Under the pieces are notes generated by a model, which made no database searches, was not told the DNA's origin, and saw nothing but the letters and a program-made list of their open reading frames with translations. Made by a program: the position numbers and the translations under genes. This document shows positions 5,376-63,709 of a stretch of 64,000 nucleotides of DNA, one piece after another (within the stretch, counting starts at the first letter, position 1; every line of letters starts with the position of its first letter). Location: contig CM000436.1 in assembly GCA_000165345.1 (NCBI GenBank), forward strand, positions 288,001-352,000, given 5' to 3'.

Positions 5376-5425
5376 TTGTCCACATGCAAATATGCAATGG
5401 CCATGGCGGGCAATTTTTGCCGCCC
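5376..5425. promoter_or_regulatory. promoter motif cluster: TTGTCCACATGCAAATATGCA plus an inverted pair of E2F-like sites (TGGCGGGCAAtttttGCCGCCC)
   Basis: A GC island in AT-rich spacer about 180-220 nt upstream of the 5600 ATG. GGCGGG and CCGCCC half-sites face each other. Confidence 0.5.
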
Positions 5426-12313: not shown

Positions 12314-12693
12314 TTCATGTAATTATTTATATTTTCTGCAGTATATATTGAATATTGAGTATAAGTAGAATAAATAAGATGAATTTCTAAGGAAGACTTT
12401 CAGATAAGTGAGGGGAGGGGGGAGGGAGGCATCGGAGTGTAGGTCAAATTCACGATCCTCTGCTTTTTTTTTTCTATTTTTTAATATTCTTTCTCTTCCA
12501 ATTAGCATCTAAACTGAGTATAAATTAAGAATCTCATTCTTTTAGTATCAAAAAGAGAAAAAGAAGAAATAAAGGAAGAGAAGTAAAAACATATATTACT
12601 TAGTATTAATTTGGACAAAGTTGAATAAAATAGAGAAAGAATTAGTGACCTATTATTTCATGTTCACTCTAATTAAAAAGTATATTTTCAATA

Positions 12694-13360
12694 TTAAATC
12701 TTTGAGTTTTTGATGATTTGGTCCAACATAAGTTTTTCAGCTATAATAAGTTTTTCTTGTATATATGGAGATCCTCTATATTTTCCACTTGCTTCATTCA
12801 ATTCAAGCATTCTTCTTGCAATCTAAAGAACAATATGAATAATTCAAGTTAGAAATAATGCCAATATATGAAGATACATTTTTTTAAAAATTTCTTTATT
12901 AGTTGAGAAAGATTTGAACCATATTTCAACAGAAATTTGGTTATACAAACTTTCAGAAGAGATTGATATAATGATATTTATTATAAACTACAACACTTAC
13001 CTTTTGTATATCTTCTACAGAATACTTCTTCCCAAATTCGGTACCTAGGATTTTGTTTGCTTCTCCAAGAGTCATTTTACTTCCAAAATTGATAGATCGA
13101 ATTGCTTTAATACCATCTAAATCAATTTTAAAGTTTTAATGATAGAATTATATTTGAATATTTAACAAATTTTAGATAAACAAACCTTTATATGAATCTT
13201 TAAAACATTGCTTTACAACACTTTGTAAGGATCCTGAAGTAATCTTAATTAACTTAGTTATTACTCTGGAAATAGTTATTATTAATTATTATGAGTCAGA
13301 AATTTTGGTAAATTATTCAAGTCAACACATCTTAGCTTACCTTAAAGTCCTCGGAGACAT
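12694..13360 (-). CDS. PAM16: PAM16/TIM16 (Magmas)-like mitochondrial import motor subunit, four exons
   Basis: This gene is not in the ORF track. The minus-strand exons are 13341-13360 (ATG TCT CCG AGG ACT TTA AG|GTAAGC), 13186-13265, 13001-13116 and 12694-12822 (ending at TAA). The three introns are 13266-13340, 13117-13185 and 12823-13000, with donors GTAAGC, GTTTGT and GTAAGT and acceptors CAG, TAG and TAG. The spliced 114-aa product is MSPRTLRVITKLIKITSGSLQSVVKQCFKDSYKDGIKAIRSINFGSKMTLGEANKILGTEFGKKYSVEDIQKIARRMLELNEASGKYRGSPYIQEKLIIAEKLMLDQIIKNSKI. Compare Magmas LAQIIVMGVQVVGRAF...[52 protein letters not shown]. E2F-like (GGCGGGAAA) and GCATGCA sites lie upstream at 13835-13858. Confidence 0.6.
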
Positions 13361-13834
13361 TCTTATTGAAATACCATAAAATTAATAATATGCTTATTTT
13401 TCTATCTTTCCATGTATTTATTAGATTTATATATAATATATATTATATAGCCAAAATGTACTAATATAAGCATTAATTGTTTATATTACCATTTCTTTCT
13501 TAAATAGAAATTCAAAATCCAATAAGAAATAATGCAAAGAAAAGATATAAATTCAATATTAAGAACTGAAATTAATATGAATGAATGTGAAGTAGAAAAA
13601 CTATTATTGTAATCACTTGATAACTTGTATTATTTGTGGGGAAAAGTAAAAAGCTGAAAAATTAAGAAATCTATAATTTATTAACCAATTATTTTATAAA
13701 TGAAATAGACCATTAAAAAAATGAATCTAATTAATGATTTAAATCCTTATTTTATTTCCTTCTTACAATCAAAATTTATTATTAAAATTATAAATGATTA
13801 CCCCCCAACCGCTTTTATAGAAAGAATTTGCGAT

Positions 13835-13858
13835 TTAGGCGGGAAAGATTGCATGCAG
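13835..13858. promoter_or_regulatory. TTAGGCGGGAAAgattGCATGCAG upstream of the PAM16-like gene
   Basis: Lies about 475 nt upstream of the PAM16 ATG (13360, minus) and just 3' of the HBS1-like stop. Confidence 0.45.
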
Positions 13859-13962
13859 AAATGTAGTAGAGAATAACAATAATAACAGTGGTAATAGTAA
13901 TAATAATAATAGTAATAATAATAAAAATAATAATTAATTAATTAATTAAACAATTAAAAAAT

Positions 13963-17556: not shown

Positions 17557-18881
17557 TGATTGATTGCTCAGTACCCTTAGATATTATATTAATTATTATA
17601 CTAAATTTATAGAATATGTTGCAACAAAAACAATATGATAGTTGAATAATTTATATATTAAATTCAGGCATTTGAGTTAGTTTTTTGTTTGTAATAAAAC
17701 ACTAATAATTGGATTAAAATATGTTTACTTTAAATAGTTTTAATTAATTAAAAATCAACCTGTTTATTTTACTCTTCTATTTCACACTTTTTTTCTACAT
17801 TTATTCTTTTCATTCTATATTATTTTTTTTCTATTATTAATTATTTTGATTCATAATTTACATGCAAAAAGGCGCCAAATAATTGGCGCCACAAACTTTA
17901 TGTCACAATTTAATAGAGGTTAGAACTAGTTGATAAAAAAGAAAAAAGAAAGAAAGAAAGAAATTAGAACACAATATATATGTATTTGGTAGAAAAGGTT
18001 GAGTTATACTTGGAATGCTATAAATATGAACAAGCAGTAAGTTTTAACAAATATATTTTAAATAGTGATCTATTTGTACATTTTCTTTTTTTTTTTGAAA
18101 ATCAAAATATCATATTAATTGAAAAGAGTATAATTAGATCAAATATATATAATAAATATTTATTGTTTTAACTTGTTATATTAGTGTAATTATAATTGAT
18201 TATAAATCAAAAGAATTAGCAAATATAGTAATGGAATGTATTAAGCCTGATTTTATTTTATCTAAAAATACGAAAGATTCAAGAAGAGAAATAATGGTAG
18301 ACAACACAGAATTAATAGTGTAAGTTAACTTTACATGCTTTTTGTTTTTCAGTTTATCAATAACTTCAGTGAAATAGAAAGTTCTAATGTTCAAATTCTA
18401 AGAAAAACAGTAAATGCAATATATGGAGCTTTAATTTTGTCGACTAAAACAATTGAAGAGTTTAGTAATATATAAGAGTGAATTCTTCACAATTTATATC
18501 TTTATTGAATTTGAGTATGAATCAAGTTCTTTAAAAATAGGTCTAATAAGTAAAAAGTATTAATAATAGATATTAATATTCCAATGAAATTTAATAACTT
18601 TTTAAAAATATATATCTTTATGTATGTAAATATATCTATATGCATAAATAAAAATGTTAAAGCTTGGAAATATATAATATTTATCTATTTACCTGTATTC
18701 ATACATATATATAGATAAATAGGTAAATATTTATTAGTTTTATTTCTTTCCACTTGTGAATGGATATTATCCGTGATTATATCAACTTTTCCCCTTCCCC
18801 TCATATTTGGCGCTCAAAGGTACCGTTGTATGTAATAATTTACTGAGGGAAAAAAAGGATTATTAAGCATTAAATAAATAA

Positions 18882-18931
<50 letters not shown>

Positions 18932-19081
18932 TAAAGGTAAATCAGGAAAGTAGTAAAATTACGAGGATTAATAGTTCTTCACTAATACTTGCATATTTTC
19001 AGTCAGAAAGCCAATATAAAAGAATCTAATATATGTGGATGTAAATAAGTATATACTAAAGGAAAATAAAGTCTTAGATAT

Positions 19082-20199
<1,118 letters not shown>

Positions 20200-20970
20200 A
20201 TGCATTAATTAGTCATTTTGGTAGACGATATACTGCTACTATTACTACTATTCCTATATCTATTACCTATAATAATTTACTGTCTTTCTTCGAAAAATTC
20301 CCGGCTGCAAACATGCATTTTACCTGCATGCGTTTTTTTCAATGTGGACAAAAAAGGATAATGCTTACGTGTTTTTTTTAGTGGATAAAAAGAGTCTGAT
20401 ACCGGTATGCAAGTGCACACATTTTTTTTTTTTTAACTAATTTCATAATTTTTTTTTTTAAATCGATAATAAAAAATTAGGAATAGCAAATGAATTAATT
20501 GTTTTAATTTTTGTTATTAAGAAGAAATTAAATGGCAATGAGTGAATTAATATTTGTCGAGCAATGTGTTATAGTTATCAGAGATCTCTAAACAAAAATT
20601 CGAGTAATAATGAGGGGTGAAAGTGGATATTCATTATATATAAAGTATATAGGAGATATATATTATAAATATAATTTAAGATATAGTACTCTTCGACCGA
20701 TAATGGCGGGAAGATCTACTGAAGTTATTTAAATATTGCAAATTTGCACCATACCCACAGTGGAAATGAATACAAGGGAATAATTATTTTGAATAGAATT
20801 CGAAAAAACAAGTATAATAATAAAGAAAATAAATCTTGAGTGTAATTCAAGTATAAACAAATATTATTAATAAATAAATATATTTTTATTTATATATATT
20901 TATCTATATACATATTTGCATATATTCGGTGTTTCTGAAATACATTAATATAATTTTAAAAAACAAAAAG

Positions 20971-22533
<1,563 letters not shown>

Positions 22534-23243
22534 ATATTTTCTTTAAGAGAGATTAAATAAATATTTGCTATTCAAAATACATCATAAAGAAAAATATTTA
22601 AAAGATTAAATATTAATAATAATAATAATAATTTACAATTTAAAAACATTTTCAGATTTAAACCAAATTACTTTGATTAATATTTAATTTAAGTAGTATG
22701 TAAACAATACACATATTATTATTATTATTATTATTATTATCATTATTAATACTCATATGCTTCTTTTTTCTTCAATCTTTTAATTCTGTCTCATTTTTAT
22801 TTGCATTTATTAATAAAGTTGTAAAATTTGGTTTCCACATTAATTTTTTTATATTTATATACCGGTATATTACGTAATACAATAACGGTATTATTTATGT
22901 GGATATTAAATATATTACGTTTAAATTGCATGTACATGTACATGCAAATGCAAATACGTATGAATACATAAATCTAATATTCTGTATATATTTATGGTTG
23001 ATAATTGGCTTAGAAATATACAAAAAATGTAAGAAAAAAAAATTGTATTGACTAAATAGGAAAGAAATTATTTATTTATACAAAGTAAAATCATCAATGC
23101 TAATTTATAAATATTCAAAGAACTTAACTAAACCTTCTTTTTAATAATTCACATTTTATTGCTTACTTTCTTTGTAATATAAAGTGCCAAAATAAAGCTT
23201 TTAATATATTAAATTTGATTCAAATTGGAAATATGGGACGATT

Positions 23244-28580: not shown

Positions 28581-28783
28581 TTAGTTTTTAATGCTTTCAC
28601 TGAATATATTTATCAATAAACACTCTTTTCTTTGATACAATTGACTCACTACTTTTCTTACCTTTCAATGTTCTTATTTTTCTCTTTTAAAATCTTAAGT
28701 ATTATTATTATTTTTTTTTTTTGCCTTTACCCTTTTTTCTTGTATGATCACTCCCTGACACCTGGTATCTTATGATCATGCAC

Positions 28784-28826
28784 TTCCCGCCAAAATGCGT
28801 ATGCATGCAGAAAATCTGGCGCCAAT
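28784..28826. promoter_or_regulatory. TTCCCGCCAAAA - TGCATGCAG - TGGCGCCAA cluster upstream of coronin
   Basis: Lies about 385-430 nt upstream of the coronin ATG (28399, minus strand). Confidence 0.5.
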
Positions 28827-36424: not shown

Positions 36425-39272
36425 TTAATTAGTGCAATATATTTCTTGTGCTGGAATAAGTTCATAATTAGCTCTATATTTTAAATATGCATTTTGACGA
36501 TGACTATTCCATGTTGTTGGAGCTTCTTGTATATTATCGGAAATTATTGTTTGATTATTAGAATTATTTATTCCTGTATTATTTGAATTAATAATATTAG
36601 AAAATGCAATTCTTTGTGCAATTAATGGTAAAATTTCATTGAGAGTTTCAATGAGTGGTATAAAATAGTCTAAAGTTAGTAAATATGTTCCATTACTTAA
36701 TCTTTTAGAATCAAAATTATCAAAATCAAATGATTCATAAGCCATTTGCATTGTTCTCCAGCCTGGAATGGTGTACTTACCATCAAACCATCCAAATGGA
36801 CCCATTTTGTTTTGTTCAGTAATATACCATCTTTGATCATATTTATATGTAACATTTGGTGCAATACAATGATTCATAACTTTAGTAATATTTGAAACTC
36901 CTTTATCATAATTTTTATCTAAATATGTGCTTTTTGGTATTAATAACCTTTTATTCATTAATTTTTGTGCGTGTAAATACTGTTGCTGGTTTTGCATGTT
37001 TTTCATTGATACAGATTTTGTAGTCTTGACTGTTTTCACTGGTGATTTTGTTGTTACTATTGTCACTCTTTTTGTAGTGGTAGTAGTTATTATTATAGGT
37101 TTTTTGGTTGTTGTTACTGTAGGTTTTCTAGTTGTAGTAGTAACTATTGGTTTTCTAGTTGTGGTAGTAGCTGTAGGTTTCTTAGTTGTGGTAGTTGCAA
37201 CTATGGGTTTCTTAGTTGTGGTAGTTGCAACTGTGGGTTTCTTAGTTGTGGTAGTAGCTGTAGGTTTTCTAGTTGTGGTAGTAGCTGTAGGCTTCTTAGT
37301 TGTGTTTGTCGTTCCAATGGGTTTCTTGGTAGTAGTTGTGTTAGTTGTCATTGTGGTTTTCTTAGTTGTGGTTGTAGTTCCAATGGGTTTCTTGGTAGTA
37401 GCTGTATAAGTTGCCACTGTGGGTTTCTTAGTTGTGGTTGTCGTTCCAATAGGTTTCTTGGTAGTAGTTGTATTAGTTGCCACTGTGGGTTTCTTAGTTG
37501 TGGTTGTCGTTCCAATAGGTTTCTTGGTAGTAGTTGTATTACTTGTCACTGTGGGCTTCTTAGTTGTGGTTGCCGTTCCTATGGGTTTCTTGGTAGTAGT
37601 TGTGTTAGTTCCCACTGGCTTTCTTGTTGTTGTTGTTGTTGTTGTAACCGTAGGTTTCTTAGTAGTTGTAAAAGTTGTAGTATTTAATGGTTTTGTTTCT
37701 TTATTTATTTTATCAATAGAACTTTCTTTTTCATTCAATGTTTCATCTCTATCTTTTTTAGTTAAAGATTCCAAAAAACTATTTAACCCATCCATAATTG
37801 TTGAATCACCAGAATTTGTATCTTTATTTGATTCTTCCTGTTGCATTTCTTCCTGCTCAAGTTCTAATTCGCTACTCTCTGAATCTTCAGTATTTGTTTC
37901 CTCATTACTGGTATCTGAATTGGTAACATCTGCAGAAGAAGAAGAAGAAGAAGAAGAAGTAGAAGTAGAAGTAGAAGTAGTAGTAGTAGTCATCTTCGTC
38001 GTTGTCGTCGTTGTTGATTGATTTTTTGAAGATATTGGCCTTTTTGTATTTGTAACACTTATTTGATTTGAAATATGAACCTTTTTTTCATTGTTACTCG
38101 ACATTTTGTCAATATTGTTACTTTTCGAGCTTTCAAATTGATTGTCTATTGTATTGCTACTTACAACTAAAGGCTCTTTATCTCCAATATATCTAACGAT
38201 TGTATCGTTAAAGTTAATTGGTTGGTAGTAAAGATGATCGTTAATTATTGGATTTTTAGCATTAAACCATTTAATTCCCATATTTGTATTAAAAAAAACA
38301 ATTCCTGCAATTGGGTAACTCATTATCAATGGTATTACATATTTTTGAGTAATACTATTACTATGAGTAACTACAACAATCTTTCTTGTTTCAAATTTTA
38401 AACAATTATTTACAAGCCAAAATAAAAATGATGAACTTGAAATTGTTTCAGACTTATTTCCAATTTTCGAATTAGTTAATTTTCCAGATTTTCCATAACC
38501 TGGTGGTGATACTGCTGCTACAGTAAAACCATTCTTATAAGCTTCATCTAATACTTTTGATTTTAACCAAGTATCCGCTATTAATTTTCCAATAAACAAA
38601 ACTAAACCTTTTTCTTCACTCTGATCTTGCTTCATTAATACTATTTCAATATCTAATTCTGATGAACAAGATAAAATTTGAGTTTTTGTAGTTATTAATG
38701 ATTTTGTATTTTTTGTTATACTATTAGATGTTTGTACTTTATCATTATTTTCATAAATATTACTTTCAATAAATATATTATTTGTATCATATGATGAAAA
38801 TACTAAAATAATCATTAGTTAAATTAAAAAAAAAAAAATTTTCAATTAATTTTAATATTAAATTAAACTTACCTAAAGATTGATAATAAAAATAACTAAA
38901 AATTGCTGGTACAAATATAAAAATTAATGTCAATATACCATTCAATTGTCTTAACTTTTTTCCTCTATGCGATTTTGGTTTTATACATGTTTTACCAATT
39001 ATCCAAGAAATGCCCCATGATATGATTGGAAAACCAAAAAATCCCATAAAAAATAATACTACTTGTATTCTATCTCGCTTATATTTTGTTCTCAGTAATG
39101 ATTTAGATGTTTTTCTTTGAATTATTTCCAGTATTGTTGTATTACTGTCCGTTAAATGATAATAATCATTTTTATCTCCAATATCAAAGTTCTCAAGTTT
39201 TTTATCTTCCTTATTATGCTCTATATTTAATTTTAAATTTTCAATATTATTTTTTCTATTTTCAGTGACCAT
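36425..39272 (-). CDS. chimeric membrane protein with N-terminal TM helices, an alpha/beta-hydrolase-like domain, a Thr-rich mucin repeat region and a C-terminal conserved domain; two exons
   Basis: Track ORFs 38787-39272 (-) and 36425-38815 (-) are joined by a 70-nt intron at 38803-38872. Exon 1 ends ...TAT CAA TCT TTA G|GTAAGT and the acceptor is TTTTAG|TA TTT TCA, in frame, giving ...YYQSL|VFSSYDTNN.... Exon 1 encodes two hydrophobic helices (VVLFFMGFFGFPIISWGISWII, ILTLIFIFVPAIFSYFYY). Exon 2 has a hydrolase-like block (GLVLFIGK...VAAVSPPGYGKSG...VVVTHSNS), acidic S/E tracts, about 25 tandem TTTTKKP(T/I)(V/G)(A/T) units, then a Cys/Trp-containing C-terminal domain. Confidence 0.6.
37040..37660 (-). 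repeat. tandem 27-33-nt minisatellite encoding TTTTKKPxxT mucin repeats
   Basis: The + strand shows repeated units such as gggtttcttagttgtggtagttgcaactgt, ggtttcttggtagtagttgtgttagtt and ccaataggtttcttggtagtagttgtattagttgccactgtgggtttcttagttgtggttgtcgtt. The opposite-strand artefact ORFs 36927-37409 and 37419-38021 are poly-V/L/F. Confidence 0.85.
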
Positions 39273-39656
39273 TTATTATTATTATTATTATTATTTTCCT
39301 TCAAGTTTTTTTAATTATTAACTTAATTTTTCTTCTTCAATTAAAAAAAAAAACAAGAATAAAAGAAAATCTTTTTTAGTTACTTAAAATATTAATGTTA
39401 TTGTATTTGTTGTCCACATAAAAAATGCATTCGTAATTTTACTTGCAATTTTGCATGCATGTAAAAAATGACGTAATTAGTTATTTAATAAAAGAAATTT
39501 TTGAGTGTGCCGGACCCTCCCGCCAATTCCACTACCAAGTAATAAATCAAATAATAAGAAATTATAACAAATAATTAAAAAAAAAAAGAAAAATGAAAAG
39601 AAAGAAAAGATAGAATGACCCAAGAAATATATATTTAAAAAATAAAATCAAAATTT

Positions 39657-45300: not shown

Positions 45301-48300
45301 TTTTAAAGAAGAGATATGCAGTTTTTGATTTTGAAAATAGGCTTAAAGAACTTAAAGGGTTTGAATTAAAGAGAAGAGGAGAGCTTCAATTGATAAAAAT
45401 TCTTCAGGAGGAGTTATTTCCAGCATTTTTAAAAGGTAATTCAAAGAAAGAAGCATATGATCATGTAGCTGCAATATCAAAGAAATGGTTAAGTTTGATA
45501 GATACTAAAGGAAGAGGTATTTTAGATGATGAACAATTATTCTTTTTGATTTCAGAGTCAAAGAATATGTCAAAGAGTGTACAACAGATGGGGAATGCTA
45601 AGTCAATGTCAATTACAACAGCAAAGAGACTTTTTGAATTTCTTCAGAATCCTTCATATATTCAGGATAAGAATATTGTTTGTAAGTTTATTGTTTCAGA
45701 GTTCCCTAAAGGAGAAGATAAAAGTCAAAGAGCAGTTCCTCTTTCTATTTTTTCAACACCTTTAGAGACAAGAGTTTCATGGCTTTCTAAATGGCTGAGA
45801 ATAAGTAAATCTGGTGGAAGGAGAGAAAAGGATGAGTTGGTGGAGCACAGGAGGAAAGCAGATGTAGATATAACGAGTGGCAGTGGTGGTGGCAGTGGTA
45901 TTCTTAATAAAGAGAATGAGAATAACAAATGGAATGTTCGTAACATTCTGGACTGGGAGTACTATAAGAACAGGCTTACAAACACTATTTTAAAGATAGT
46001 TATAATTCCTGCAATTAACCAGGGGGTTCCAAATCCTCTTCCAGAATTAGAGGTACCGAGTTGGGTAAGATACCATTCAGAGATAGTTGGTACAAATCAA
46101 CAAAAGATTTCAGAGTACTTTAATGTTGTTAAGAAGGAGGAGAAAAAGAAGAGCAGTTTCTCTGAACTTCCTAATTATAATTCTATTATTCAAGGCCGAA
46201 GTCAAGATCATGGTCAAACTCAAGATCAGGGTCAAACTCAAGATCAGGGCCAAATTCAAGATCAGGGTGTAATTCAAGACCAGGGCCAAAATCGAAATCA
46301 AAACTTAACTTTAGGTCAAGGCCAAATTCAAGATCAGGGTCAAACTCAAGATCAGGGTCAAACTCAAGATCATGGCCAAATTCAAGATCATAGCCAAATT
46401 CAAGATCATGGCCAAACTCAAGATCAGGGTCAAACTCAAGATCAGGGTCAAATTCAAGATCAGGGTCAAATTCAAGATCATGGCCAAACTCAGGCTTGTA
46501 AAATTGTAGAAACCAGAAATAACAACAGTATTTCAAAATTGAATGGAAAACTGACAAAAAAAGAGAGGATTGAATTATTCAAGGAAAAAGGATTTAAATC
46601 CTGGTTAGAGTACCATAAGAAATTTTGGTTGGAGAATTTTCATGCATTTAATGAAAAACAGTCAGAACTTGAAAAGAAGCTAAAAAATATTGATATAGAA
46701 AAACTTGAATATTTTGGAAAAGGTAATACTGCAAAAGGTATCGAATTTTTATCTGAATATATTTTCTTAACGAAAGGAAGATTTCATATTTTAGATATAT
46801 ATCCTCTTAGTATCCAACAAAGGAATATTAAAAGAAATTATGATGAAGATCTACTGGGATTTTATAATGTTGTTATGTACTCTGAAGAAACAGGAGATTG
46901 TTTTACTGTTACATTTGAGTTCCTTAGACGTTTTTATATTGCTACAAATGTTCAAATTCAAATTATGGATAATGATGATGATGGTGAATTTATTACAAAA
47001 TCTATAGCTACAGGGAAAGAGTTACCTAGAGGGGTACCGTATAATCATTTAACAGAAGTAATAATTTCAGAGAGAAGATTTCAGAAATCAAAATCAACAT
47101 TGATTTGTGATAATAATACTGTTGGTATTTATGAGACAAATTTACCACTTGAATTTTCTATTTTAGAAAAATTTGGGAATATCATAGAAAGTAATACTCC
47201 TAATGTTGAGAAATTACTTCTTAAGAATGGAGCAATTACTGATAAATTTTGGAATTCTGCTGGTGGATTAAAAGAGAAGAATTTGAATTATGGAGATATA
47301 ATACATTGGTTATTTCTTTCAATATGTACTTTTGAAGAAAGAAAATGTTTCTCTTTAACAGATTTAAGTAAGAAAAGAATTTACTTCTTTCTTGGATTAG
47401 GACCAACTATTTCTAATAATATTCTTAAATCTGAGCTTCATAGACAAATTCAACAAGATCAAAGATTGGAAAAGATTACTGAAATTCATGTTAATTATTT
47501 TAAGACAACAAAAGATTGTTTAGAAGAATTGGATCGACTTTTGAAAGATTTAATCCAAGAATTTCCAAAAGAACCTATAGTTCTTTTAATACAATCAATG
47601 GTTAGATTAGAAGAACTTAAAACACATAATAGTGAATTAAATCTTTATAAAACTATATTAAGAGAATATATTTCTGAAATGGAACATAATAAGAAAGTTA
47701 TTGAAACTAAAATAGTAACATTATGGGAAGAAATAATAGATTTTGATTCAAGTAATTCAATATTTAGTAGATTTGATTGGCATAAAGATTCGATTAGATA
47801 TTCATTAAAAGCTTTAAAAGAAGCAATTAATAAACTTCAGCTATCATTAGAACTTTCTAAAGCTTTAAGACTTCCAGTATTATATTTACTTCAATTTAAA
47901 AAAAACTTAACAAACTTTTTATATGATATAATATATTCCAGAGAACTTCATTCTATGGGATTATTAAGCTGGGGATCTTTAAGATCCACTCCAGATCTTG
48001 GGAATCCTAAGTTAATCCAACTTTCAAAAAGTGATTGGGATCTTAGAAGACTTGGATATTTAATGCCAACAAAAGATCTTAATAACTCTAAAGGAGGAAG
48101 AGTAGGTGGAGGACATAGTAATTGTAATACTAATAGCTTAGATGAATTGGATGTATTGGAAGTAGTAAGACCAGGAATCTATAGAAACTATGGGGTTCAA
48201 TTGGATTTCAAGCAATGGCTAATAATTGAATCTGTAAGAAATTGTAGGTTACTCTCTGATAAGTACAACTTGGATGACTTTGAACAAGGAGAGAAACGTA

Positions 48301-50492: not shown

Positions 50493-50831
50493 ATTATGAA
50501 TTTCATAGATAACTAGTTAAAAAAAAAGAAATAGAACGGAATTATTTGTTATATATAACTTACTATAATCTAAATCTATCCTTAAACTACCTATTCTGAC
50601 TTTGTTTTCAATTCGAAGATAAAAACAAATATATAAAAAAACAATTTAATGCATGTGGGTTTGGCGGGCCATTGCGTGTATGAACCTGCATGTAGTGGCG
50701 GTAACATCTTTGCCTAACATTTTCTTTCTCCCATATGATAATAGTAACAATAATAATAATAATAATAATAATATTGATAATATAATTCTCTTTATCTACT
50801 TAGTGTTAGTCTTGTCTTGATTTTTGATAGC

Positions 50832-54606: not shown

Positions 54607-55209
54607 CTTATTTAAATTATTTAGTGGGGAAAATTAATTTAAAAAAAAATGAAAAAAATGCTTTCGTTTATTCATTCTTAAATATTAAAAAAAAAATTAT
54701 AATATATATAAGTTTCTATAATGAAATTGATGGATAATTGTTCTTTGATTTTGTGATTAATAAAATCTGATAATAAATAGAAAGTATTATTGAACTTAAA
54801 TATTAAAATTTTATATTATTTTCTTTCAATGTTTTGCTGTTATAAATAGATTTGTTTCTAGTAAAATATATTTATATAAAGGAAAATTATTTACTATTAA
54901 AGAAAGATCTACCTGAATTTTTAAAATAATTTCTAATTAAAAAAAAAAATTTTTATTCACAATATTTATTGGTAGCAAATATGTGGGGAAATGTTTCTAG
55001 TGTCCTATACCGGTGTTTGTTGGCATTGCATACGTGTATTTTTTTTTTCAATGTGGAAGGGGAACTTAGGTGTAAAGGCAATGCAAAAAAAAAATAAAAA
55101 TAATATTATAGAGTAAGCAGAGAATAGTTATAAATTTTAAGTATTTTTTTTTTTTCTAATAAATAATTAATAAGGTAATTAACAAAATAAAATTAGTAAT
55201 TAGATTAAA

Positions 55210-57363
55210 ATGCTAGATGGGAAAATCAAGAAGCCTGCTCATCAAAAATTACATGAAACAGTTGGAAAACATAACAGTTACATGAAAAATGTTGTATATG
55301 GTGACGAAAATATAACTGAATTAAATAAAATGGAATATCCAAGAAACACACTTTTGAGAAATAATGGATTACCAGAAAAACTTGAAAAGCATTTAAACAA
55401 TGAAAAAGAAAGAGAATTAGAATCATTATATGAAGAAAATCGACAATTATTAATGGAAATTTCAAAACTACGTAAAACAAATCAATTGTTAGTCAAAGAT
55501 GTAAATAAGAAAAATGAAATTATTGATAGTCTTGATTCAAGTCTTGTTGAAGTTGAAGAAAAACTGGAAAATGCAAAAAAGAAGAATTGGAATATGTATA
55601 ATGAAATTTTGAATAGAGAAAGAAAGAATCAACAACAAAATAATACCAGAGAACATAATACAGATTCAAATAATTCTGATGATGAAACTTATGAGCTTAA
55701 GGCCTCTAAAATTGGAACTTTTAATACAGTAAATATAATAAAATCTAATAATAAAAAAGATTTAACTAGCAATAGACCAAAGTCTACAAGTATCTCTACT
55801 TCAACAGAAAATACCAAATGGCTACAAGACATGATTTTAGAATCTTTAAGTGAAAAACATGTGGAAAAGAAAGCATATGATAATTTAAAATATGAAGTTG
55901 AGAAGCTTCAGAAAGAAATTTATTCAATGCAAACTGACTTATTGAAAAGTAATATACATGATGAAGTCATTCAAGAACCAATTGTTGATCATTCTAATGG
56001 AAAGTTATCAGTCTTCCATTCCACTAGCTCTTCAACCAATAATTCTTCAAGCATTATTGGAACATCTGTCAGCGGCTTTAATACCATCAATAATACTTTC
56101 CAATCTACTTCTCTCGCTCAAGAACTAAAGGAGGTCAACAATACTACAACTAATAGCTCCTTTGACTCTTCACAGAAATCTGAAGAAATTCAACAAGAAT
56201 CTGAAAAGGAAAATGAACAAGAAAATGTTGAATCTATTCCTCCAAGAAGTGTTCACATATTAATGGGTAAGACTTTCTCTAGAGACAATAACATTGACAA
56301 AAAAATCAACAAATACAAAAATGGTCCTAGATATAATATTCAGAAATCTGATAATGACAATTTTATTCATCCAACTTCTAATTATTACAGATCTGATATT
56401 CAAACATTCCAAACTCAAATTAATCAACAACCAAGTATAGCTACTAACGGAAATAACTATTATTACTACTCATACTCTAATTTGAATAATAAACATCAAA
56501 ATTACAACAACCTTGATCTAAAGAACTATTCTCATATCTATAATACTAATTACACTAATCCGTTTTTAAGTGTATCTACGAATGATAATTATAATAATAT
56601 GAATAGGCCTTTACAAGCATTCCAAAACAATAACTATTCTATTTATAACTCAATTAGAAGACCCATAAACCTTGCTGAATATAGAGCTAATTATAAAAAC
56701 CAACCGCATATGGACAACTTAGTAAATCACCATCCCCTAATGACTAACTCCATGTTAGATTCAGGCTTAAACCCTCAAAACTTAAAACAAGGATTTATAC
56801 AACATCAATACTCTAAAATTAATTTTCCAGAATCAAATTTAAACTCAATTCCAAGTTTAAATCCATTCTATACACAAACTATTAACTTAAATAATTATTC
56901 AAATTTACCATTTCCACCATTTCAAGTCAAAATTACACAAATATTCAGGAGAAATAGAAACAATTCTGTTCCTCCTCCAAGACCTAAAAATGAATTAAAT
57001 TCTGAAAAAGTTGTTAATGAAGAAAATCATCCAGTATCTAACAAAATTGATCTACCCGATTCTAATAATGATTCAGATAAAGATCTCCCACAGGGATATA
57101 TTCGTTTCAAAACTTCTATTTCTTCTCCATTGAGCCAGGATGATTTCTTTTCCCCAATCTCAGGAAATGTTAATAATATCTGTCCTTGCGATAAAGCCAT
57201 TGATTCATGCGCAGCCATATCAAAAAAGCTAATTCAAAATAACTATGAGAAGAAAAACAAGATGAGATCATCGTCAACATCTCTTCCACTCCCGATTCCT
57301 TTAATCGCAAAAAATAACCAATTTCAGGGAACATCTGGTCTACTCAAGTTTAGTAAATACTAG
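55210..57363 (+). CDS. hypothetical protein: N-terminal coiled coil, long Asn/Ser/Tyr-rich low-complexity remainder
   Basis: A 717-codon ATG ORF. Heptad-like segments are present (EKLEKHLNNEKERELESLYEENRQLLMEISKLRKTNQLLVKD, KKAYDNLKYEVEKLQKEIYSMQTDLLK). I recognise no catalytic motif. Confidence 0.5.
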   Translation: MLDGKIKKPAHQKLHETVGKHNSYMKNVVYGDENITELNKMEYPRNTLLRNNGLPEKLEKHLNNEKERELESLYEENRQLLMEISKLRKTNQLLVKDVNKKNEIIDSLDSSLVEVEEKLENAKKKNWNMYNEILNRERKNQQQNNTREHNTDSNNSDDETYELKASKIGTFNTVNIIKSNNKKDLTSNRPKSTSISTSTENTKWLQDMILESLSEKHVEKKAYDNLKYEVEKLQKEIYSMQTDLLKSNIHDEVIQEPIVDHSNGKLSVFHSTSSSTNNSSSIIGTSVSGFNTINNTFQSTSLAQELKEVNNTTTNSSFDSSQKSEEIQQESEKENEQENVESIPPRSVHILMGKTFSRDNNIDKKINKYKNGPRYNIQKSDNDNFIHPTSNYYRSDIQTFQTQINQQPSIATNGNNYYYYSYSNLNNKHQNYNNLDLKNYSHIYNTNYTNPFLSVSTNDNYNNMNRPLQAFQNNNYSIYNSIRRPINLAEYRANYKNQPHMDNLVNHHPLMTNSMLDSGLNPQNLKQGFIQHQYSKINFPESNLNSIPSLNPFYTQTINLNNYSNLPFPPFQVKITQIFRRNRNNSVPPPRPKNELNSEKVVNEENHPVSNKIDLPDSNNDSDKDLPQGYIRFKTSISSPLSQDDFFSPISGNVNNICPCDKAIDSCAAISKKLIQNNYEKKNKMRSSSTSLPLPIPLIAKNNQFQGTSGLLKFSKY

Positions 57364-57685
57364 ACATCTACTCTCATTGTATCCTAGCGTGACTCAACAT
57401 ACGACTCCCCTTCCCATATCCATCTTATAACTATCTATTTACTGCTAGTCAAATCTACAATCTAAAAGCAACATACAGTATAAAAACCTTAATTAATACA
57501 CAATTATTATTCGTTGTTTTTTAATATAAAATTCATACTCCTAAAAATTCTCCTGTAGAGCTCAACATGAACCCTTCTGTCCATTATACTACCTACAAAT
57601 TATTAACCGCCACATTTTCGAAAGCGCCAAATCGCATGCATTTTCATGTGGACAATTCAATACCGGTATTTATTTAGCTGGTTTT

Positions 57686-60600
57686 CTAGTGAAAGATTAA
57701 TTTATTGTTTGACATTAGATGATAATTATTATTTATTGTATTGGAAGAGTTAGAATTTGAGTTATTATTACTGTTGTTATTGTTCACATGATGATGAGAT
57801 GAAATCAGACCAGGAGAAATTGAAGAATTGGGCCCCATGTCAACGCAACTTGAAATGTTTTGTGAGTTAGAAACACTTGGATGACCGCCAGAAGCCGTAG
57901 TTGCAATGTCAGTAATTTGAAGAGTTTCAAGCTTCTTTTCAAGGACATCAATTCTATTGGTCATATCTCTAAGACTTTGTATGAAAAATGGCATTGTAGC
58001 ATCCAGACAATTATGTTTCCAAGCCATTTCCATTACAGTATCTGGTCTTAAAAACTCATAGCATGTATATAAACAAGCTACAAAGTTCTCCTTCTTGTTA
58101 TTACTAAGGAGGAATTCCAAAAGTTCTTCAATAAGAGCAACATTGCCACTCTTGTAAACCACTAAGATTGCTTCATCTATTAGCATCTCTTTCTGACAAA
58201 TTGAAAGAGCTTGTTGATAATTTGAATTCTTATCTAAGATCTTCACTGCAAGTTTTCTTAAATCATTCATTGGATGCTTTTCTAATCTGGCTGAAAGTTT
58301 TGCCTGGTCATAGTTGTCGCAAGTTAAAATTAATTTCATCAGCTTTTCAACTTCCACCTTCTCTATGTATAAATTAATCAAAGCCTCATTCACAACTTGA
58401 ATGTTCTCATCACTAATAGATTCTAAGAATTCTTGAATTATTGAAATATCGTAATTAGATCCACTCTGTGTTCCACTTTCTTTCCCAACTGAAGGTCTTG
58501 GAGAAATCCCTGTAATTGGACCCACTGTATTAGAGCTTGTTGAAGAAAGTCCTTGACTAAAATACTGTTGAATAAATCTAGTAGTAATATTAGCAAGATC
58601 AAAATTGCTTCCAGATCTTCCTGTCCCTGATTGACTATGAGCTCCACTTGTTGATTTAGTGGGAGAATAGTCTGATATATCACTAGAGTTCGACTTTGGT
58701 ATCATTTCAGAACTTTTTTTAGGCTTTAAAGTTAACATTAATAAACTATTTAGCAATTCTGGATGCTCTTGTAGATAGAAAGTCATTGATTTATAGAGAA
58801 TATCCACATTTGTAACGTTTTGTAGTATACTTAGGAATTGATCATTCTTCCATGCCTCTTTTGGATGACTTATTACTGTTAAAACTGCTTGATCAAACTC
58901 TTGATATTGGAGGTAAAGGTATACCACCTCATTCCAAAGCTGTCTTTGCTCACAGATCCTAGTAAGCTTTGGGATGTTAATTCTTCCTGAGTAAGAAGAA
59001 CAATAATCCATAAGCTTTTCAGGAGTATACTTTGCATAAAGTATTCCAAGTTCTGTGAAAAGGCTACCATTAGCACGATCTGTGTTTTGAATAGCTCCTT
59101 CTAATAGAGTTAGAAGCTCAGCTGTGAGACCCTTCTTCTCATATTCAGATACCACATCCTCACAGTAATCTGGATACACTATTATGTTAAGTCCAGCTTG
59201 ATGTGCTAACTCAGATTCACCAATCTGCATACAAATCTGCAAAAGCTCCTTCCAAGTTTTAGGAGAGTTTGCCTTCTTAGCAGTTTCCAAAGCGTTATTG
59301 TACTCTCCAAGTTGAATATAGCAACTAGTAAGCCTTGAGTAATTTGGTATTGCCTGATAGAAAATGATTGAGTATCTATAATCTTGTTCATCCATAAGTC
59401 TATCTCCAATTTTTTGAAGTTGTACTGTGTTAATACCTTGTAAGAAGCTTTGGAGATCTTGCAAAAGCTCCAACTTAGACATACAGTAAGCTAATTCTGT
59501 ATCAACAATTGGGTCTTTGGATGTTCTAGAATCTTTCAATCTTCGAACCATTTGTAAATACCCCAATAGTTCTCGATAAGCTTTAACTGAGAGACAATGT
59601 TCAATAATAAGTCTATAATCTCTGGTGTTCTCAGATTTAATAAAGCAATCAACAGCGTCCTTTGTTCGAGAAATCTTTAGATATTGTTGACCAAGAACAT
59701 CCCAAACAGAGTTATCATTGCAATAGGATGCAAAATCCTGAACCTTAGATAGATCCATATTAGCCAATTTTTCAATACTAATCATAGAATCCAAGTTTTT
59801 CATAAACTCAGATCCTTGTCCATCAATTTCAATACCCTCATTCTTTAACAATTCAAGCTTTGAAATCATTAATAAGGTCTCAACAGCCTCATTATTAAAA
59901 GAGAACTTCTTATAGATCTGAAAAGCATGTGAATAAAGCCCATGATCTATTGCAACTTTGGCCACCTCCTTAGCATCATAATTATCTAATCTGAGTACGT
60001 AATCATCCAATCTTCGAACATCTATCTTAATAGAAGTTAATAAAAGAAGATTTTGAAGGTTCTTATTCTGAGAAAATTCAGTGTTATTAACATGGAAGAT
60101 AATCTTCTCCAAAACTTCTAATAATGAATTCGGTACCTCTGCATTAATAAATGCCCTAATTACACAGCTAATTTCTTCAGATTTATTATAGAACTCTGGT
60201 AATATTGAAGAAGTAACCTGATCAATAATAGCTTGTCTACACTGCTCATTAACAACAGGTTCAATAGAATTCGAAGAATTTCCCAAAACTTTATTCCAAA
60301 GATCAAGATCTTGACGTTCAACAAGGTACCTAGCTAATAAACGATATAAATCATTTTTGTAGGTAACTTGTATAATTTCATCATCGCATTGTCCCCAAGC
60401 CTTTCTATAAGCAATATATGCAAGATAAGGATCTCTATCTTCACAATAATCTCCAATAGTTTTTGCGTCATAATGAGGATTAGTCTTAAGGAAATTCTCG
60501 GAATCCTTATTCATATCAATATAAATCTTTGCCAAAGCATTATGTAAAGCTGGATCTTGGTACCCTTCTTGAACTCTTTCTTCAAGCCAAGATAACAATA

Positions 60601-63600
60601 ACTTGAGACGATTTCTGTTTTCTGCTTGTTGAATTAGCTCTCCAAAGGAGAATGAGGATCCTAAAGTCTTGATCTCTTGTAAAAGAGATTTAACTAAATC
60701 CTCAGATCCATCAAGATCTATTAAGGTACCGATAACCAAAGGAGTTTGACTTGGATTAATCTTCAAAGTATAAACCTGTATGTACTTATAAAGTGACATA
60801 TGGTACAAGTAACTAATCAATTCTTCTACACGGTGATGAAGATCACAAACCCAAATTAATGGTCTTAAATCGCTCATCTTAATGCTCTTAAAGTACTCGA
60901 TGACTTGTTCTGGTTCGTAAGATTGTGGGAAATCCCTGCAAATCCTCTCAGCCTCTTGGATCTGGCCAAGATGGACTGAAGCTTCAATATACTTGAATAC
61001 AATAAAGGTAGAAAATGATCCTGTTCCACCATTAACCGATCCTGTATTAGAAGATGGTAATCTTCCCGATCCTGCCAGAACCACTCCAGCCCCTCCTCTA
61101 TTTTGAGTACCAGAATCTCCTATTAAGCTTTCACTAGACAAATTCAAAGAATCAGTAGAACCAGATGAAGATAAGCTATTTCCAGATAAATACTGAGTCA
61201 GATTTGACCCTACAACATAGTAAATGCCTTCCCAAATTCCCTGTTGTTCAAATAAAGTAATAATATTCTCTATTCCTATATTATCCACATTCTTAATACA
61301 TACCTGAATGACACTCTGTAAAACGGTGTTATTATTACTTAATGCTATCGAATTTGATGAACTGTTTCCTATTAACCCTGCTTGTCCATTACCTGGTAAT
61401 GCTCCATTAGACGCTAATCCACCTCCCATGGAAACTAATCCACCTGCCCCACTACTATTCTTGCAAACCAACAGTAGCTCCTTCAAACAATCAAATCTTG
61501 TCCTTGGACTTAATTTAGATAAGTAATTTGCCAGCCAATCGGTATTTAAACTCCCACAAGCTACTCCTAATATTCTCCTTATATCACGCATGTCAGAGAA
61601 ATTCTCAAGAGCCCTCTCATAGAGACCCGCCTTTTCGCAAAGGGCGGCAATTGCATGCTTGTCATAATGAGTGAAAAGGTCCATTTGGAAAAGGGCTTCA
61701 GCAACTTGTGGAGCATGAAGGAGATTAACTTCAAGTAGTTTTGTTTGGAGGGCAGAATCTTCTGGTTTATTAGCTTTGAGATGGTCTAGAAGGATAGAAG
61801 TGATTTCCTTATATCTAGAATGGGATACAAAAATCTCAACGACTGAAGTTTTATCTATATTAAGATCAAGAGATTCAGCAGAGGTGGAATTGGCCAGATC
61901 TGTTTGGGATGAAGGAGCAGGAGGGAGTATAACTGTTTTAACAAACTCAACAGTAGCATCAATATTGTTAGCAATTAAAAGACTGTTGAGTAATGACCTG
62001 ATATCAGTAGTAATAGTAGGCCAGTTTGAAGCTCTCTGTTCACGAATAAATTCTGAAACATGTGAGAAATTACCAATTTCAATAAGTGTTTGTAAGATTT
62101 TGGTTGGATTTTGAGGAGTACATTTTTTAAAAATCTTAAGAGCAAGTTTCTTTTCGCCATTCTGAAGTAGTGTATCTCCAAGTTCTTCAGAGAAAGCTAA
62201 CTTTTCTTCATTTATTAGGACTTGTAAGAAAGCTAAAGGTTGTGTAATGGAGGTAAATTCTGAAATTAAACTTGTAGAATTTGGAGAAAGTAATAGTCTA
62301 CAAAACTCAGTACTTTCAAATTGGTTTAAAGTGTGAAATTTGAATACAGTTGTAAAGTACTGGAATAATAACTTATTCGAAGAATCAACCATTTTGAAGT
62401 GATTAAGAGTTGCAGGAGTTCTTAAGCTCCCATTTTTATTAAGAGAAACAACTCTACAAGCATTTTGATAGTCTTGTCTCTTAATTGATTCATTGAACAT
62501 CCTAATTGAGAATTCATCTGTTCCCTGATAACCGTACCTCTGAGTCCATCTAAGAAGATTTGAATTTAGAGATAATTCAGGATTTGATTGGATATATGTA
62601 AGAACTGATGAGCTATTTAAAGTAATATGGAGAACCAGTCCTTTTTTATTTGCCATACAAATCCCGTGAAAACGGCTTGGAGAACCTAAAAACACAGAAT
62701 CCTGGCAGACCTTATTGCAATAAAGCAAAGTATTTGATGTTGGCTCCACGATATACAGAATTCCACCTCTTGTAATAATGAATATGACTCCAAAGTAACT
62801 TGAAACATAAGTATATATTGGAAAGTCAAAGCTATGTGCACCTCCAGCTGAGCCTTCATCTACAGTTGGAAGTTCAATAACAGCTTTGAATGGTGTTGGA
62901 GGAGATAATGATGACCCGAATTCACCAGATCCTGCTCTTTGGCCTGAAATATCCATTACATGAAGTCTAGCATTTGAATGTTCTTGTTTCTTCTCGACAA
63001 AGCAGACAATTGATGCTGGAGAATGTACAAAATCATCAACAATAAGCTCTCCAAAGTTACCAGAAAACCCTTCAATAAGTTGTTGTTGACGTTTTTCTAC
63101 TGAAAATAATTGAAGCTGGCCTTTAACGGAAATTGACCCAGTTGACTCATTTGTTACTGGGCAAAGTCCCATAAGCATACACCATCTTTGGCCAGAGTCT
63201 GTCTGATATCCAACAATTTGAGTTGATTGTTCTGCTAATTTTCCAGCTCTCTCAAAAATTCGAACAGGAATTGAATTAGAATTTCCTGATTCTATTGTCC
63301 AGTGATATATACCCTTATCACCAACAATTGCTAGAATTCTTGGAGTCAACCATCTCCAAAATACTACAGATTCAGGAAATAAGAATGCTCCAAGCTTCTC
63401 TTTAGAGTCTAGATTAAAGATTTGGACTGTACAACCATTATCTTCATATCTTCCTCTGACTACTAGAATATTTTCAATGGGATGTATTAAAGCGCTTTCT
63501 GCTTTCATTGGCTTTCTATTTATTCCTTTAGATTGAGTATCAATCACAACAATCTGTGAACCGCCATCAACACTTGTTTCCTTTACACCGACATATTTAT

Positions 63601-63709
63601 CTCCTTCCAATGTCAGGCTACCAAATCGAAAACATGATGAATTGATTCCAAGTTCCTCCAAATTTGCCAATACATTGGTAGTAATAGGGATTCCTCCCTT
63701 GTTCTGCAT
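57686..63709 (-). CDS. CHC: clathrin heavy chain (expanded, 2007 aa)
   Basis: The N-terminal beta-propeller matches the CHC N-terminus ([38 protein letters not shown]... versus [63 protein letters not shown] versus [23 protein letters not shown]). CHCR alpha-solenoid repeats run throughout. There are several Ser/Gly/Asn-rich insertions and an Asn-rich C-terminal tail. Confidence 0.95.
   Translation of the reverse strand: [2007 protein letters not shown]

Follow-up and report, generated by a model that had tools for sequence, protein, structure and literature searches.

A conserved cluster of candidate factor-binding motifs between the convergent 3' ends of cgd8_1260 and the clathrin heavy chain gene in Cryptosporidium parvum

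Introduction

What would a set of promoter-type motifs be doing in a gap where two genes end and none begins? The question is raised by a short spacer on chromosome 8 of Cryptosporidium parvum, located within the 64,000-nt stretch of that chromosome that was analysed here (hereafter 'the window'). The window is AT-rich, with a G+C content of ~20-38% per kb, and contains long open reading frames (ORFs) that are tightly packed. It had been predicted from the DNA sequence that a 322-nt spacer within it is flanked on both sides by the 3' ends of genes, and this is borne out by the ORF ends, which leave positions 57364-57685 between two converging genes. The locus is arranged as follows.

cgd8_1260: 55210-57363, + strand; 717 aa, uncharacterised protein; forms the left border of the spacer
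Convergent 3'-3' spacer: 57364-57685; 322 nt, from the stop of cgd8_1260 (+) to the stop of the clathrin heavy chain gene (-)
Clathrin heavy chain: 57686-63709, - strand; 2007 aa, stop codon at 57686-57688

The ORF to the left terminates with TAG at 57361-57363 and its product is identical to C. parvum CPATCC_0001310/cpbgf_8001260, which belongs to the cgd8_1260 family; in the CpBGF assembly the spacer corresponds to CP141125.1 337209-337530. The best relatives of the clathrin heavy chain are all from Cryptosporidium, at identities of 100% (a Logan contig), 90% (C. ubiquitum) and 87% (C. canis), with more distant relatives in C. felis (78%) and C. muris (63%). The convergent order of the clathrin gene and the cgd8_1260 orthologue is kept in every assembly compared. 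A search of the C. parvum literature revealed no mention of cgd8_1260 or of cpbgf_800126x identifiers, and when transcript-derived contigs carrying cgd8_1260 or clathrin were sought only genomic contigs were returned.

Components of the motif block

The original prediction listed five strings, all of which are found in the spacer, and placed them in a block running from 57605 to 57668; the start of the block is correct, and the end was set one base short. The block was also said to begin 18 nt past the clathrin stop codon, a distance that was measured here as 16 nt, with 241 nt separating the block from the stop codon of cgd8_1260. It is composed of the following elements.

Motif block: 57605-57669; 65 nt, holding two E2F-like sites, the ApiAP2 string TGCATGCG, CATGTGGACAA and the palindrome ATACCGGTAT
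Weak E2F-like site: 57605-57613; AACCGCCAC, with a GGCGG core
Predicted E2F/DP site: 57621-57632; AAAGCGCCAAAT, which reads ATTTGGCGCTTT on the - strand
Predicted ApiAP2 'AP2_1' site: 57633-57642; CGCATGCATT, which reads TGCATGCG on the - strand and fits TGCATGYR
String spanning the M5 site: 57644-57658; TCATGTGGACAATTC
M5 site: 57645-57655, - strand; TTGTCCACATG, the reverse complement of which is CATGTGGACAA
M4 palindrome: 57660-57669; ATACCGGTAT, which resembles the published 'Motif4 CCCATACCAGGTGGA' (Li et al.)
Core strings of the block: TGTCCACAT, TGCATGC, GGCGC and ACCGGT

The E2F consensus has been defined as TTTSGCGC or [A/T][C/G]GCGC[G/C][A/T] (PMC3734150, PMC12246861). The string ATTTGGCGCTTT contains TTTGGCGC (- strand, 57624-57631), which is the canonical TTTSGCGC, and 57624-57631 is hence a predicted E2F/DP binding site that agrees with the consensus. 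The strings published for the E2F/DP1 'motif1' (table S3 of PMC7840661) include two that resemble the weaker site AACCGCCAC, namely TTACCGCCATA and CAACCGCCTAA. Adjacent to the stronger site, TGCATGCG matches the AP2_1 core (TGCATGCA or TGCATGYR) and is likewise a predicted site. The AP2 domains of both cgd2_3490 and cgd1_3520 bind TGCATGYR, a motif that is enriched in the promoters of macrogamont genes (PMC3734150, PMC11078545). The M5 site TTGTCCACATG equals 'Motif5 TTGTCCACATK', as listed in table S3 for the regions upstream of long non-coding RNAs (lncRNAs; Li et al. 2021), and it also fits A[T/A]G[T/A]GGA.A, an unnamed motif found upstream of class II COWP genes (Oberstaller 2013). Published instances of Motif4, the counterpart of the palindrome, include CCTATACCGGCTGTC and CCCATACCGGCGTTC (PMC7840661). 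The ApiAP2 binding study lists no factor for TTGTCCACATG, nor for ACCGGT. Three of the elements of the block are palindromes.

Excess of the motifs over chance expectation

In 20,000 dinucleotide shuffles of the spacer, four motif classes were not once brought together within 70 nt (0/20,000), and three classes were brought together in 19. Across the whole window, five clusters with at least three classes in 70 nt were found against an expectation of 0.02; all of them are intergenic, and the only one to hold four classes is the block at 57605-57669. The motif classes were set after the block had been seen, which inflates these cluster figures as they apply to the block, and the classes nonetheless coincide with motifs that had been published independently. 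The individual motifs are also in excess: with up to one mismatch allowed, TTGTCCACATG occurs eight times in the window (0.87 expected) and ATACCGGTAT seven times (0.54 expected), with all seven copies of the latter being intergenic. The strings GGCGC/GCGCC are found 14 times on one strand of the window and 13 times on the other, nearly always in 5' regions, with one copy in coding sequence and one in the block. Because the classes were chosen with the block in view, it is conservation between species that offers independent support.

Conservation of the block across Cryptosporidium

Orthologous clathrin loci were taken from ten other assemblies, plus further C. parvum isolates. The named assemblies are those of C. 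meleagridis, chipmunk genotype I, C. ubiquitum, C. canis, C. felis, C. xiaoi, C. ryanae and C. muris, whilst lgn90 and lgn85 are Logan assemblies with clathrin identities of 90% and 85%. In the aligned spacers, six lineages (C. parvum, C. meleagridis, chipmunk genotype I, C. ubiquitum, lgn90 and C. canis) share two cores without any change: TGTCCACATG (10 nt) and TGCATGC (7 nt), which begin 23-36 nt from the clathrin stop codon. With C. felis, TGCATGC is invariant in 7 species, and in C. felis it is retained beside an E2F palindrome, GGCGGGCCCGCC. The M5 site TTGTCCACATG is exact in six species and matches at 10 of its 11 positions in lgn85, which carries TTGTCCACATA together with a second, inverted copy; here the motif has been displaced by an insertion that itself holds GCGCGCGC and ATACCGGC. 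The E2F core GGCGC(C) is kept in C. meleagridis, C. ubiquitum, lgn90 and C. canis, in the form GGCGCC in C. ubiquitum and lgn90 and GGCGGC in C. canis.

The remaining elements are less widely kept, deep conservation being confined to three of the five that were listed. The weak E2F-like site AACCGCCAC is found in C. parvum only, its counterpart in C. meleagridis being AACTGTCAC. The palindrome ATACCGGTAT is exact in C. meleagridis, has one mismatch in C. ubiquitum (ATACTGGTAT), and is missing from chipmunk genotype I and C. canis; in lgn90 it has become ACACCGGTGT by a symmetric double change that leaves the palindrome intact.

Conservation was also apparent in an alignment-free comparison, in which the 8-mers ATGTGGAC, TGTGGACA and GTGGACAA were common to four of the five distant species, with 0.2 such 8-mers expected per shuffled spacer. 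The neutral background is given by the identity to C. parvum at four-fold degenerate sites in the neighbouring clathrin gene.

C. meleagridis: 0.81
C. ubiquitum: 0.67
C. canis: 0.35
lgn85: 0.33
C. felis: 0.23

Values of 0.23-0.35 indicate that neutral sequence is saturated in C. canis, lgn85 and C. felis, and the cores persist in these lineages nonetheless. Conservation in related genomes had been named beforehand as a test of the original prediction, and its outcome is positive. Judged by its sequence, the block is a genuine cluster of candidate DNA-level factor-binding motifs that selection has maintained. That it is instead a chance cluster, or a neutral relic without function, is very hard to believe: the post hoc definition of the motif classes, the restriction of AACCGCCAC to C. 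parvum and the loss of ATACCGGTAT from two lineages would all fit such an origin, but none of the 20,000 shuffles reproduced the cluster, and the 10-nt and 7-nt cores are invariant across lineages in which four-fold sites are saturated.

The block is not present in the orthologous spacers of C. xiaoi, C. ryanae and C. muris. As a positive control for the depth of conservation, the promoter of the neighbouring gene was followed through the same species.

cgd8_1260 5' promoter module: 55007-55061, + strand; ATACCGGTGT ... TGCATAC ... AATGTGGAAGGGG

This module, traced as CTTCCACAT...ACACGTATGCAATGCCAA..AACACCGGTATAGG, is kept from C. parvum to C. canis and in part in C. felis, whereas no alignment was possible in C. 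xiaoi, C. ryanae and C. muris, such that its depth of conservation is the same as that of the block. As the two patterns are identical, the absence of the block from the latter three species can be ascribed to general promoter turnover over such a distance.

A second stretch of the spacer has also been conserved.

AT-rich conserved block: 57472-57534; TTTTATATTAAAAAACAACGAATAATAATTGTGTATTAATTAAGGTTTTTATACTGTATG on the - strand, 70-130 nt to the left of the motif block

It is conserved in eight species, with its - strand also given as TTTTATATTAAAAAACAACGAATAATAATTGTGTATTAATTAAGGTTTTTATA, and the AT-richness persists in C. canis and C. felis, the spacers of which are GC-rich. We infer that 57472-57534 may be a poly(A)/3'-end region used by both convergent genes.

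A DNA element rather than an RNA gene, a small ORF or a 3' UTR signal

A conserved sequence in an intergenic spacer may be part of a gene that has gone unannotated. No structured small RNA gene (tRNA, snRNA, snoRNA or Rfam family) was detected: ARAGORN returned 0 tRNA genes, Rfam gave 0 matches at the gathering score in the window and 0 at E <= 1 across 57200-57900, and the predicted RNA fold of the block was no better than that of shuffled sequence on either strand (z = +0.49 and -0.63). Between the two conserved blocks, the spacer differs among species in both sequence and length. Nor was a small protein-coding gene with a conserved ORF found in the spacer. The ORFs within the gap are of 23-36 aa only; a 25-aa ORF on the - strand, the only one to lie between the conserved blocks, has its ATG changed to GTG in C. 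meleagridis and falls in a stretch that is unalignable in C. ubiquitum, and the indels of the spacer do not come in threes.

With the clathrin stop codon 16 nt away, the block falls within the clathrin 3' UTR or at its beginning. It could in principle be read there by RNA-binding proteins as an RNA-level element that governs the stability, localisation or translation of the clathrin mRNA. The block is almost certainly transcribed as part of this 3' UTR and its distance to the stop codon is conserved, both of which agree with such a role. We nevertheless consider it highly unlikely, as identical motifs are present on either strand of untranscribed 5' regions, three of the motifs are DNA palindromes, the sequence has no excess of fold (z = +0.49/-0.63), and the one RNA-binding-protein motif reported in the literature surveyed, CAMCAACAR, is a different one that sits in coding sequence. 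Indeed, TTGTCCACATG (M5) occurs in both orientations within 5' regions, and this use of either strand, alongside the palindromes and the symmetric double change in lgn90, points to recognition of the block as double-stranded DNA and not as RNA.

Related motif modules in the window

It had been proposed that the elements of the block are the promoter-associated set seen elsewhere in the window, and this was confirmed by the finding of modules with like motifs in five true 5' regions (5376-5425, 20312-20408, 28762-28823, 39410-39530 and 55007-55061). The motifs TTGTCCACATG and ATACCGGTAT co-occur at 20342/20399, 22832-22897, 55007/55051 and 57646/57660, a repeated pairing that points to a DNA-binding factor or pair of factors. 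One of these pairs belongs to the cgd8_1260 promoter, and the module at 55007-55061 and the 3' block have two unusual kinds of motif (M4/M5) in common.

This likeness raises the question of whether the block serves cgd8_1260 itself, as a 3' enhancer or gene-loop anchor that is bound by the same factors as the 5' promoter. Both ends of the gene carry a palindrome of the ATACCGGT type and ATGTGGA on the same strand, the clade over which they are conserved is one and the same, and the promoter of the clathrin gene has E2F sites only, at about -500. Against this, distal or 3' enhancers are undescribed for the very compact C. parvum genome, and the block is composed like a complete proximal promoter, E2F included, whereas the promoter-proximal module of cgd8_1260 is without E2F; an enhancer or anchor is considered quite unlikely.

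Clusters of the promoter type are also found in two other convergent gaps of the window, 22534-23243 and 50493-50831. (The gap at 12314-13962 was considered as a further convergent example and rejected, as it conceals an intron-split small gene on the - strand.) Together with the report of antisense transcripts at ~10% of the genes of C. parvum (PMC7840661), these gaps show that the premise from which the original prediction started, that a convergent spacer should contain only terminators, was too strong. For annotation, the lesson is that the convergent spacers of the C. parvum genome are not to be presumed terminator-only.

Termination by roadblock is established in yeast, where it is brought about by general regulatory factors (Reb1, Rap1). 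A block of bound proteins could act in a similar manner here, as a roadblock or insulator that halts RNA polymerase II reading through from cgd8_1260 or clathrin, shielding the convergent partner from antisense interference with no need for a transcript of its own. Its location, at which two genes converge and some 240 nt beyond the stop codon of cgd8_1260, agrees with this, and similar clusters occupy the convergent gaps 22534-23243 and 50493-50831; conservation fits any function that depends on binding, and both position and conservation are explained equally well by a roadblock. Such a role is nonetheless unlikely in our estimation, in that no precedent is documented in the Cryptosporidium literature surveyed and the motifs are of stage-associated activator types (E2F, AP2 TGCATGYR) rather than those of one dedicated factor. 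As a terminator for clathrin, moreover, a block 16 nt past the stop codon would leave almost no 3' UTR.

Similarity to the upstream regions of antisense lncRNAs

Antisense transcription in C. parvum has been catalogued by Li, Baptista, Sateriale, Striepen and Kissinger (2021), who described 396 lncRNAs, 363 of which are antisense (PMC7840661). Antisense transcripts were found on ~10% of genes, mostly over the 3' end of the sense mRNA. A MEME search of the 100 nt upstream of the 396 lncRNAs yielded E2F/DP1, the ApiAP2 motif TGCATGCA, poly-T, CCCATACCAGGTGGA and TTGTCCACATK; of these five significant motifs, which include Motif4 and Motif5, E2F/DP1 and ApiAP2_1 rank highest (PMC7840661). Sites of the TTGTCCACAT type lie at -16 to -99 and are often paired with TGCATGCA, as in Cp_lnc_215, 227, 241, 291, 311, 329 and 353 (PMC7840661). 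Four of the five published kinds of lncRNA-upstream motif (E2F/DP1, ApiAP2_1, the ATACCRG-type Motif4 and Motif5) occur in the block, which, like these regions, is located where a sense gene ends.

The two differ in their surroundings. The published lncRNAs are mostly head-to-head with an mRNA (309/363 antisense lncRNAs are so arranged with the upstream mRNA, which according to the authors may reflect bidirectional promoters; PMC7840661), whereas the block sits between two gene ends and serves no mRNA. Given this proportion, stand-alone promoters in convergent gaps would be a minority case. The pipeline also discards transcripts that resemble same-strand read-through and those that are weakly expressed (PMC7840661), and a start in a convergent gap is for both reasons the rarer kind and the one most prone to be filtered out. 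The newer annotation of CpBGF, which is based on Iso-Seq, holds 766 lncRNAs.

The locus itself could not be matched to the lncRNA tables of Li et al. by gene identifiers or coordinates. None of the 396 catalogued lncRNAs is antisense or adjacent to CPATCC_0001310 or 0001320; in the 2021 tables, CPATCC_000128x-000133x appear only in the mRNA cluster sheet, and never as a lncRNA, sense gene or neighbour gene. The motif strings of the block are not among the lncRNA upstream sequences of table S3 (PMC7840661), and the part of the lncRNA FASTA that was searched, which lacks ~105 kb, holds no 17-mer antisense to cgd8_1260 or clathrin. The kind of element is already known in C. parvum, and this instance is absent from the 2021 catalogue.

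The block has a similar relationship to ordinary mRNA promoters of C. parvum (Oberstaller 2013, PMC3734150), in that its kinds of motif, their density and the depth of conservation are those of the cgd8_1260 promoter and other 5' regions of the window. Those promoters serve ORFs, whereas the block has no downstream ORF on either strand, both of its neighbours ending there. E2F has been shown to be the dominant motif in the ATAC-seq peaks of sporozoites (Xiao et al. 2025, bioRxiv 10.1101/2025.01.17.633476). What sets the block apart is that a deeply conserved module stands alone between the ends of two genes.

A stand-alone promoter and its likely direction

The original prediction had offered three explanations of the motifs: an unannotated short or non-coding transcript, an antisense promoter, or a part in 3' end formation or insulation. 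The first two of these options are favoured by the make-up of the block, which matches both true promoters and the published upstream regions of lncRNAs; that transcription is initiated here we infer from the same likeness. As there is no coding gene for the block to serve, it would start a non-coding RNA in the gap. Of the readings considered, the best supported is that the block is a stand-alone promoter without a protein-coding gene, starting a non-coding transcript that is probably transcribed from the + strand and would overlap the clathrin 3' end in antisense; we put its chance at about even.

In the proposed mechanism, the block would be occupied by E2F/DP, by an ApiAP2 factor that binds TGCATGYR and by the proteins that recognise TTGTCCACATG and ATACCGGTAT, the bound factors would open the chromatin, and RNA polymerase II would then start within the gene-free gap. 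The product would be a + strand RNA running from about 57670-57750 into the clathrin 3' end in the antisense orientation; it would be on the same strand as cgd8_1260 and just downstream of it, with the M4/M5 pair common to the promoter of that gene. Less probable would be a - strand RNA that runs antisense to cgd8_1260, or a promoter that fires in both directions. That factors bind here, that transcription starts and in which direction, and that clathrin or cgd8_1260 is in any way affected are all put forward as proposals.

Two considerations would favour the + strand. The first is that a start on the - strand would meet the presumed poly(A) region of clathrin within about 100 nt, which would truncate the transcript, whereas a start on the + strand would lie past the presumed poly(A) site of cgd8_1260. 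The second is that the two unusual motifs are common to the cgd8_1260 promoter, on the same strand, the clathrin promoter having E2F sites only. [quoted passage not shown]

Promoters that lie at, or downstream of, the 3' end of a gene and fire back to tune the sense gene are familiar from other organisms, and include those of the gdv1 antisense RNA in P. falciparum, COOLAIR at FLC in Arabidopsis, and GAL10-ncRNA and RME2 in yeast. The factors that act in these systems are unrelated to those predicted for the block.

A more specific form of the stand-alone promoter would be one that is dedicated and under selection, with a non-coding RNA antisense to the essential clathrin heavy chain as its sole product, co-activated with cgd8_1260 by the readers of ATACCGGTAT/TTGTCCACATG, possibly in female/sexual stages. 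It is possible, and on balance rather doubtful, that all of this holds. If it did, the conservation of the block would be clean evidence of selection on antisense transcription, as no mRNA promoter shares its sites, and a new composite cis-element and its regulon would be defined. Head-to-head antisense RNAs may be functional or may be by-products, an ambiguity that the block, with no mRNA to serve, avoids. It thus provides a clean test case, in a 9-Mb genome without RNAi, for a function of antisense transcription or for factor-mediated insulation, and it is here that the orphan motifs TTGTCCACATG and ATACCGGTAT gain a conserved and testable context.

Matches to sexual-stage motifs

The macrogamont motif TGCATGYR (PMC11078545) and the oocyst-wall (COWP) motif A[T/A]G[T/A]GGA.A (PMC3734150) both have exact matches in the block, as TGCATGCG and ATGTGGACA, respectively. 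In their published context these motifs are located upstream of protein-coding genes of the female stage, whereas in the block they are found in a gap between gene ends; their presence hints that the block may be active in the sexual stages.

The palindrome and its paired site

The palindrome ATACCGGTAT, which forms one end (57660-57669) of the promoter-type motif cluster in the convergent spacer between cgd8_1260 and the clathrin heavy chain gene, was found to be over-represented: with at most one mismatch allowed, it occurs 7 times in the window versus 0.54 expected, and every occurrence is intergenic (7/7).

20399, 22859, 22882, 25572, 42021, 55007 and 57660: palindrome ATACCGGTAT, at most one mismatch

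At four of the seven occurrences a TGTCCACAT-like site lies within 70 nt of the palindrome, a level of pairing that was matched by 10 of 20,000 random placements, and by 45 of 20,000 when placements were confined to non-coding sequence. One more pair, TTGTCCACATG...CAATACCGGTGTT, is contained in a published lncRNA sequence. The pairing suggests that ATACCGGTAT and the TGTCCACAT-like site belong to one composite element, which some as yet unnamed factor would read.

The convergent spacer and the promoter of cgd8_1260

The 322-nt spacer (57364-57685) differs at a single base from its counterpart in five further assemblies of C. parvum (CpBGF CP141125, IOWA-ATCC CP044415, 43IA8 CP029787 and two Logan contigs): position 57618, non-conserved and located between the two E2F-like sites, is T in the window and G in all five. 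The middle of the spacer is occupied by an AT-rich block, 57472-57534, that is conserved in eight species.

Within 57472-57534, + strand: TATAAAA
Within 57472-57534, - strand: TTTTATATTAAAAAA plus AATAATAAT

This block is probably a poly(A) region shared by the two genes, although it may instead have a core-promoter role. Annotation has been unstable at these gene ends, since the old 2004 model of cgd8_1260 has 719 aa and is marked partial, whilst the present ORF has 717 aa (PMC12179316). At the other end of this gene lies its own promoter.

55007-55061: 5' promoter of cgd8_1260 (+ strand gene), holding ATACCGGTGT, TGCATAC and AATGTGGAAGGGG

Conservation of this promoter spans parvum to canis and is partial in felis, with no alignable counterpart in xiaoi, ryanae or muris.

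Motif clusters elsewhere in the window

No credible ORF is present in the convergent gap 22534-23243 (710 nt). Its motif cluster at 22832-22950 is symmetric, consisting of TTTCCACATT, ATACCGGTAT, ATAACGGTAT and TATGTGGATA followed by three TGCATG sites, and is a candidate for a further stand-alone promoter, possibly bidirectional, or ncRNA locus. The stretch 17557-19422 (1866 nt without an ORF of at least 100 aa) has two separate E2F/AP2_1 clusters, at 17861-17890 and 18809, and may house an intron-rich or non-coding gene.

18874-18931: (ATAT)n run
19033: TGTGGA site

An apparent convergent gap at 12314-13962 was ruled out as such, as a small intron-split gene is concealed on the - strand.

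12953-13075, - strand: ORF piece, MTLGEANKILGTEFGKKYSVEDIQK...
12694-12810, - strand: ORF piece, ...GSPYIQEKLIIAEKLMLDQ

By eye, the predicted pieces resemble Pam16/Tim16. The promoter of this gene is probably at 13838-13857, where an E2F site is paired with TGCATGCA.

In the convergent gap 50493-50831, flanked by a 2728-aa ORF (+) and a Sec24-like gene (-), the cluster 50650-50704 brings together TGCATGTGGG, TTTGGCGGG, TGCATG and GTGGCGG inside 55 nt; the flanking gene ids are listed for no lncRNA in the 2021 catalogue (Li et al., PMC7840661). Separately, in-frame tandem repeats were observed in two long ORFs, including the 2728-aa one.

37070-37666, - strand gene: tandem repeats, units of 27, 54, 66 and 114 nt
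46190-46492, 2728-aa + strand gene: tandem repeat, 18-nt unit x16.8
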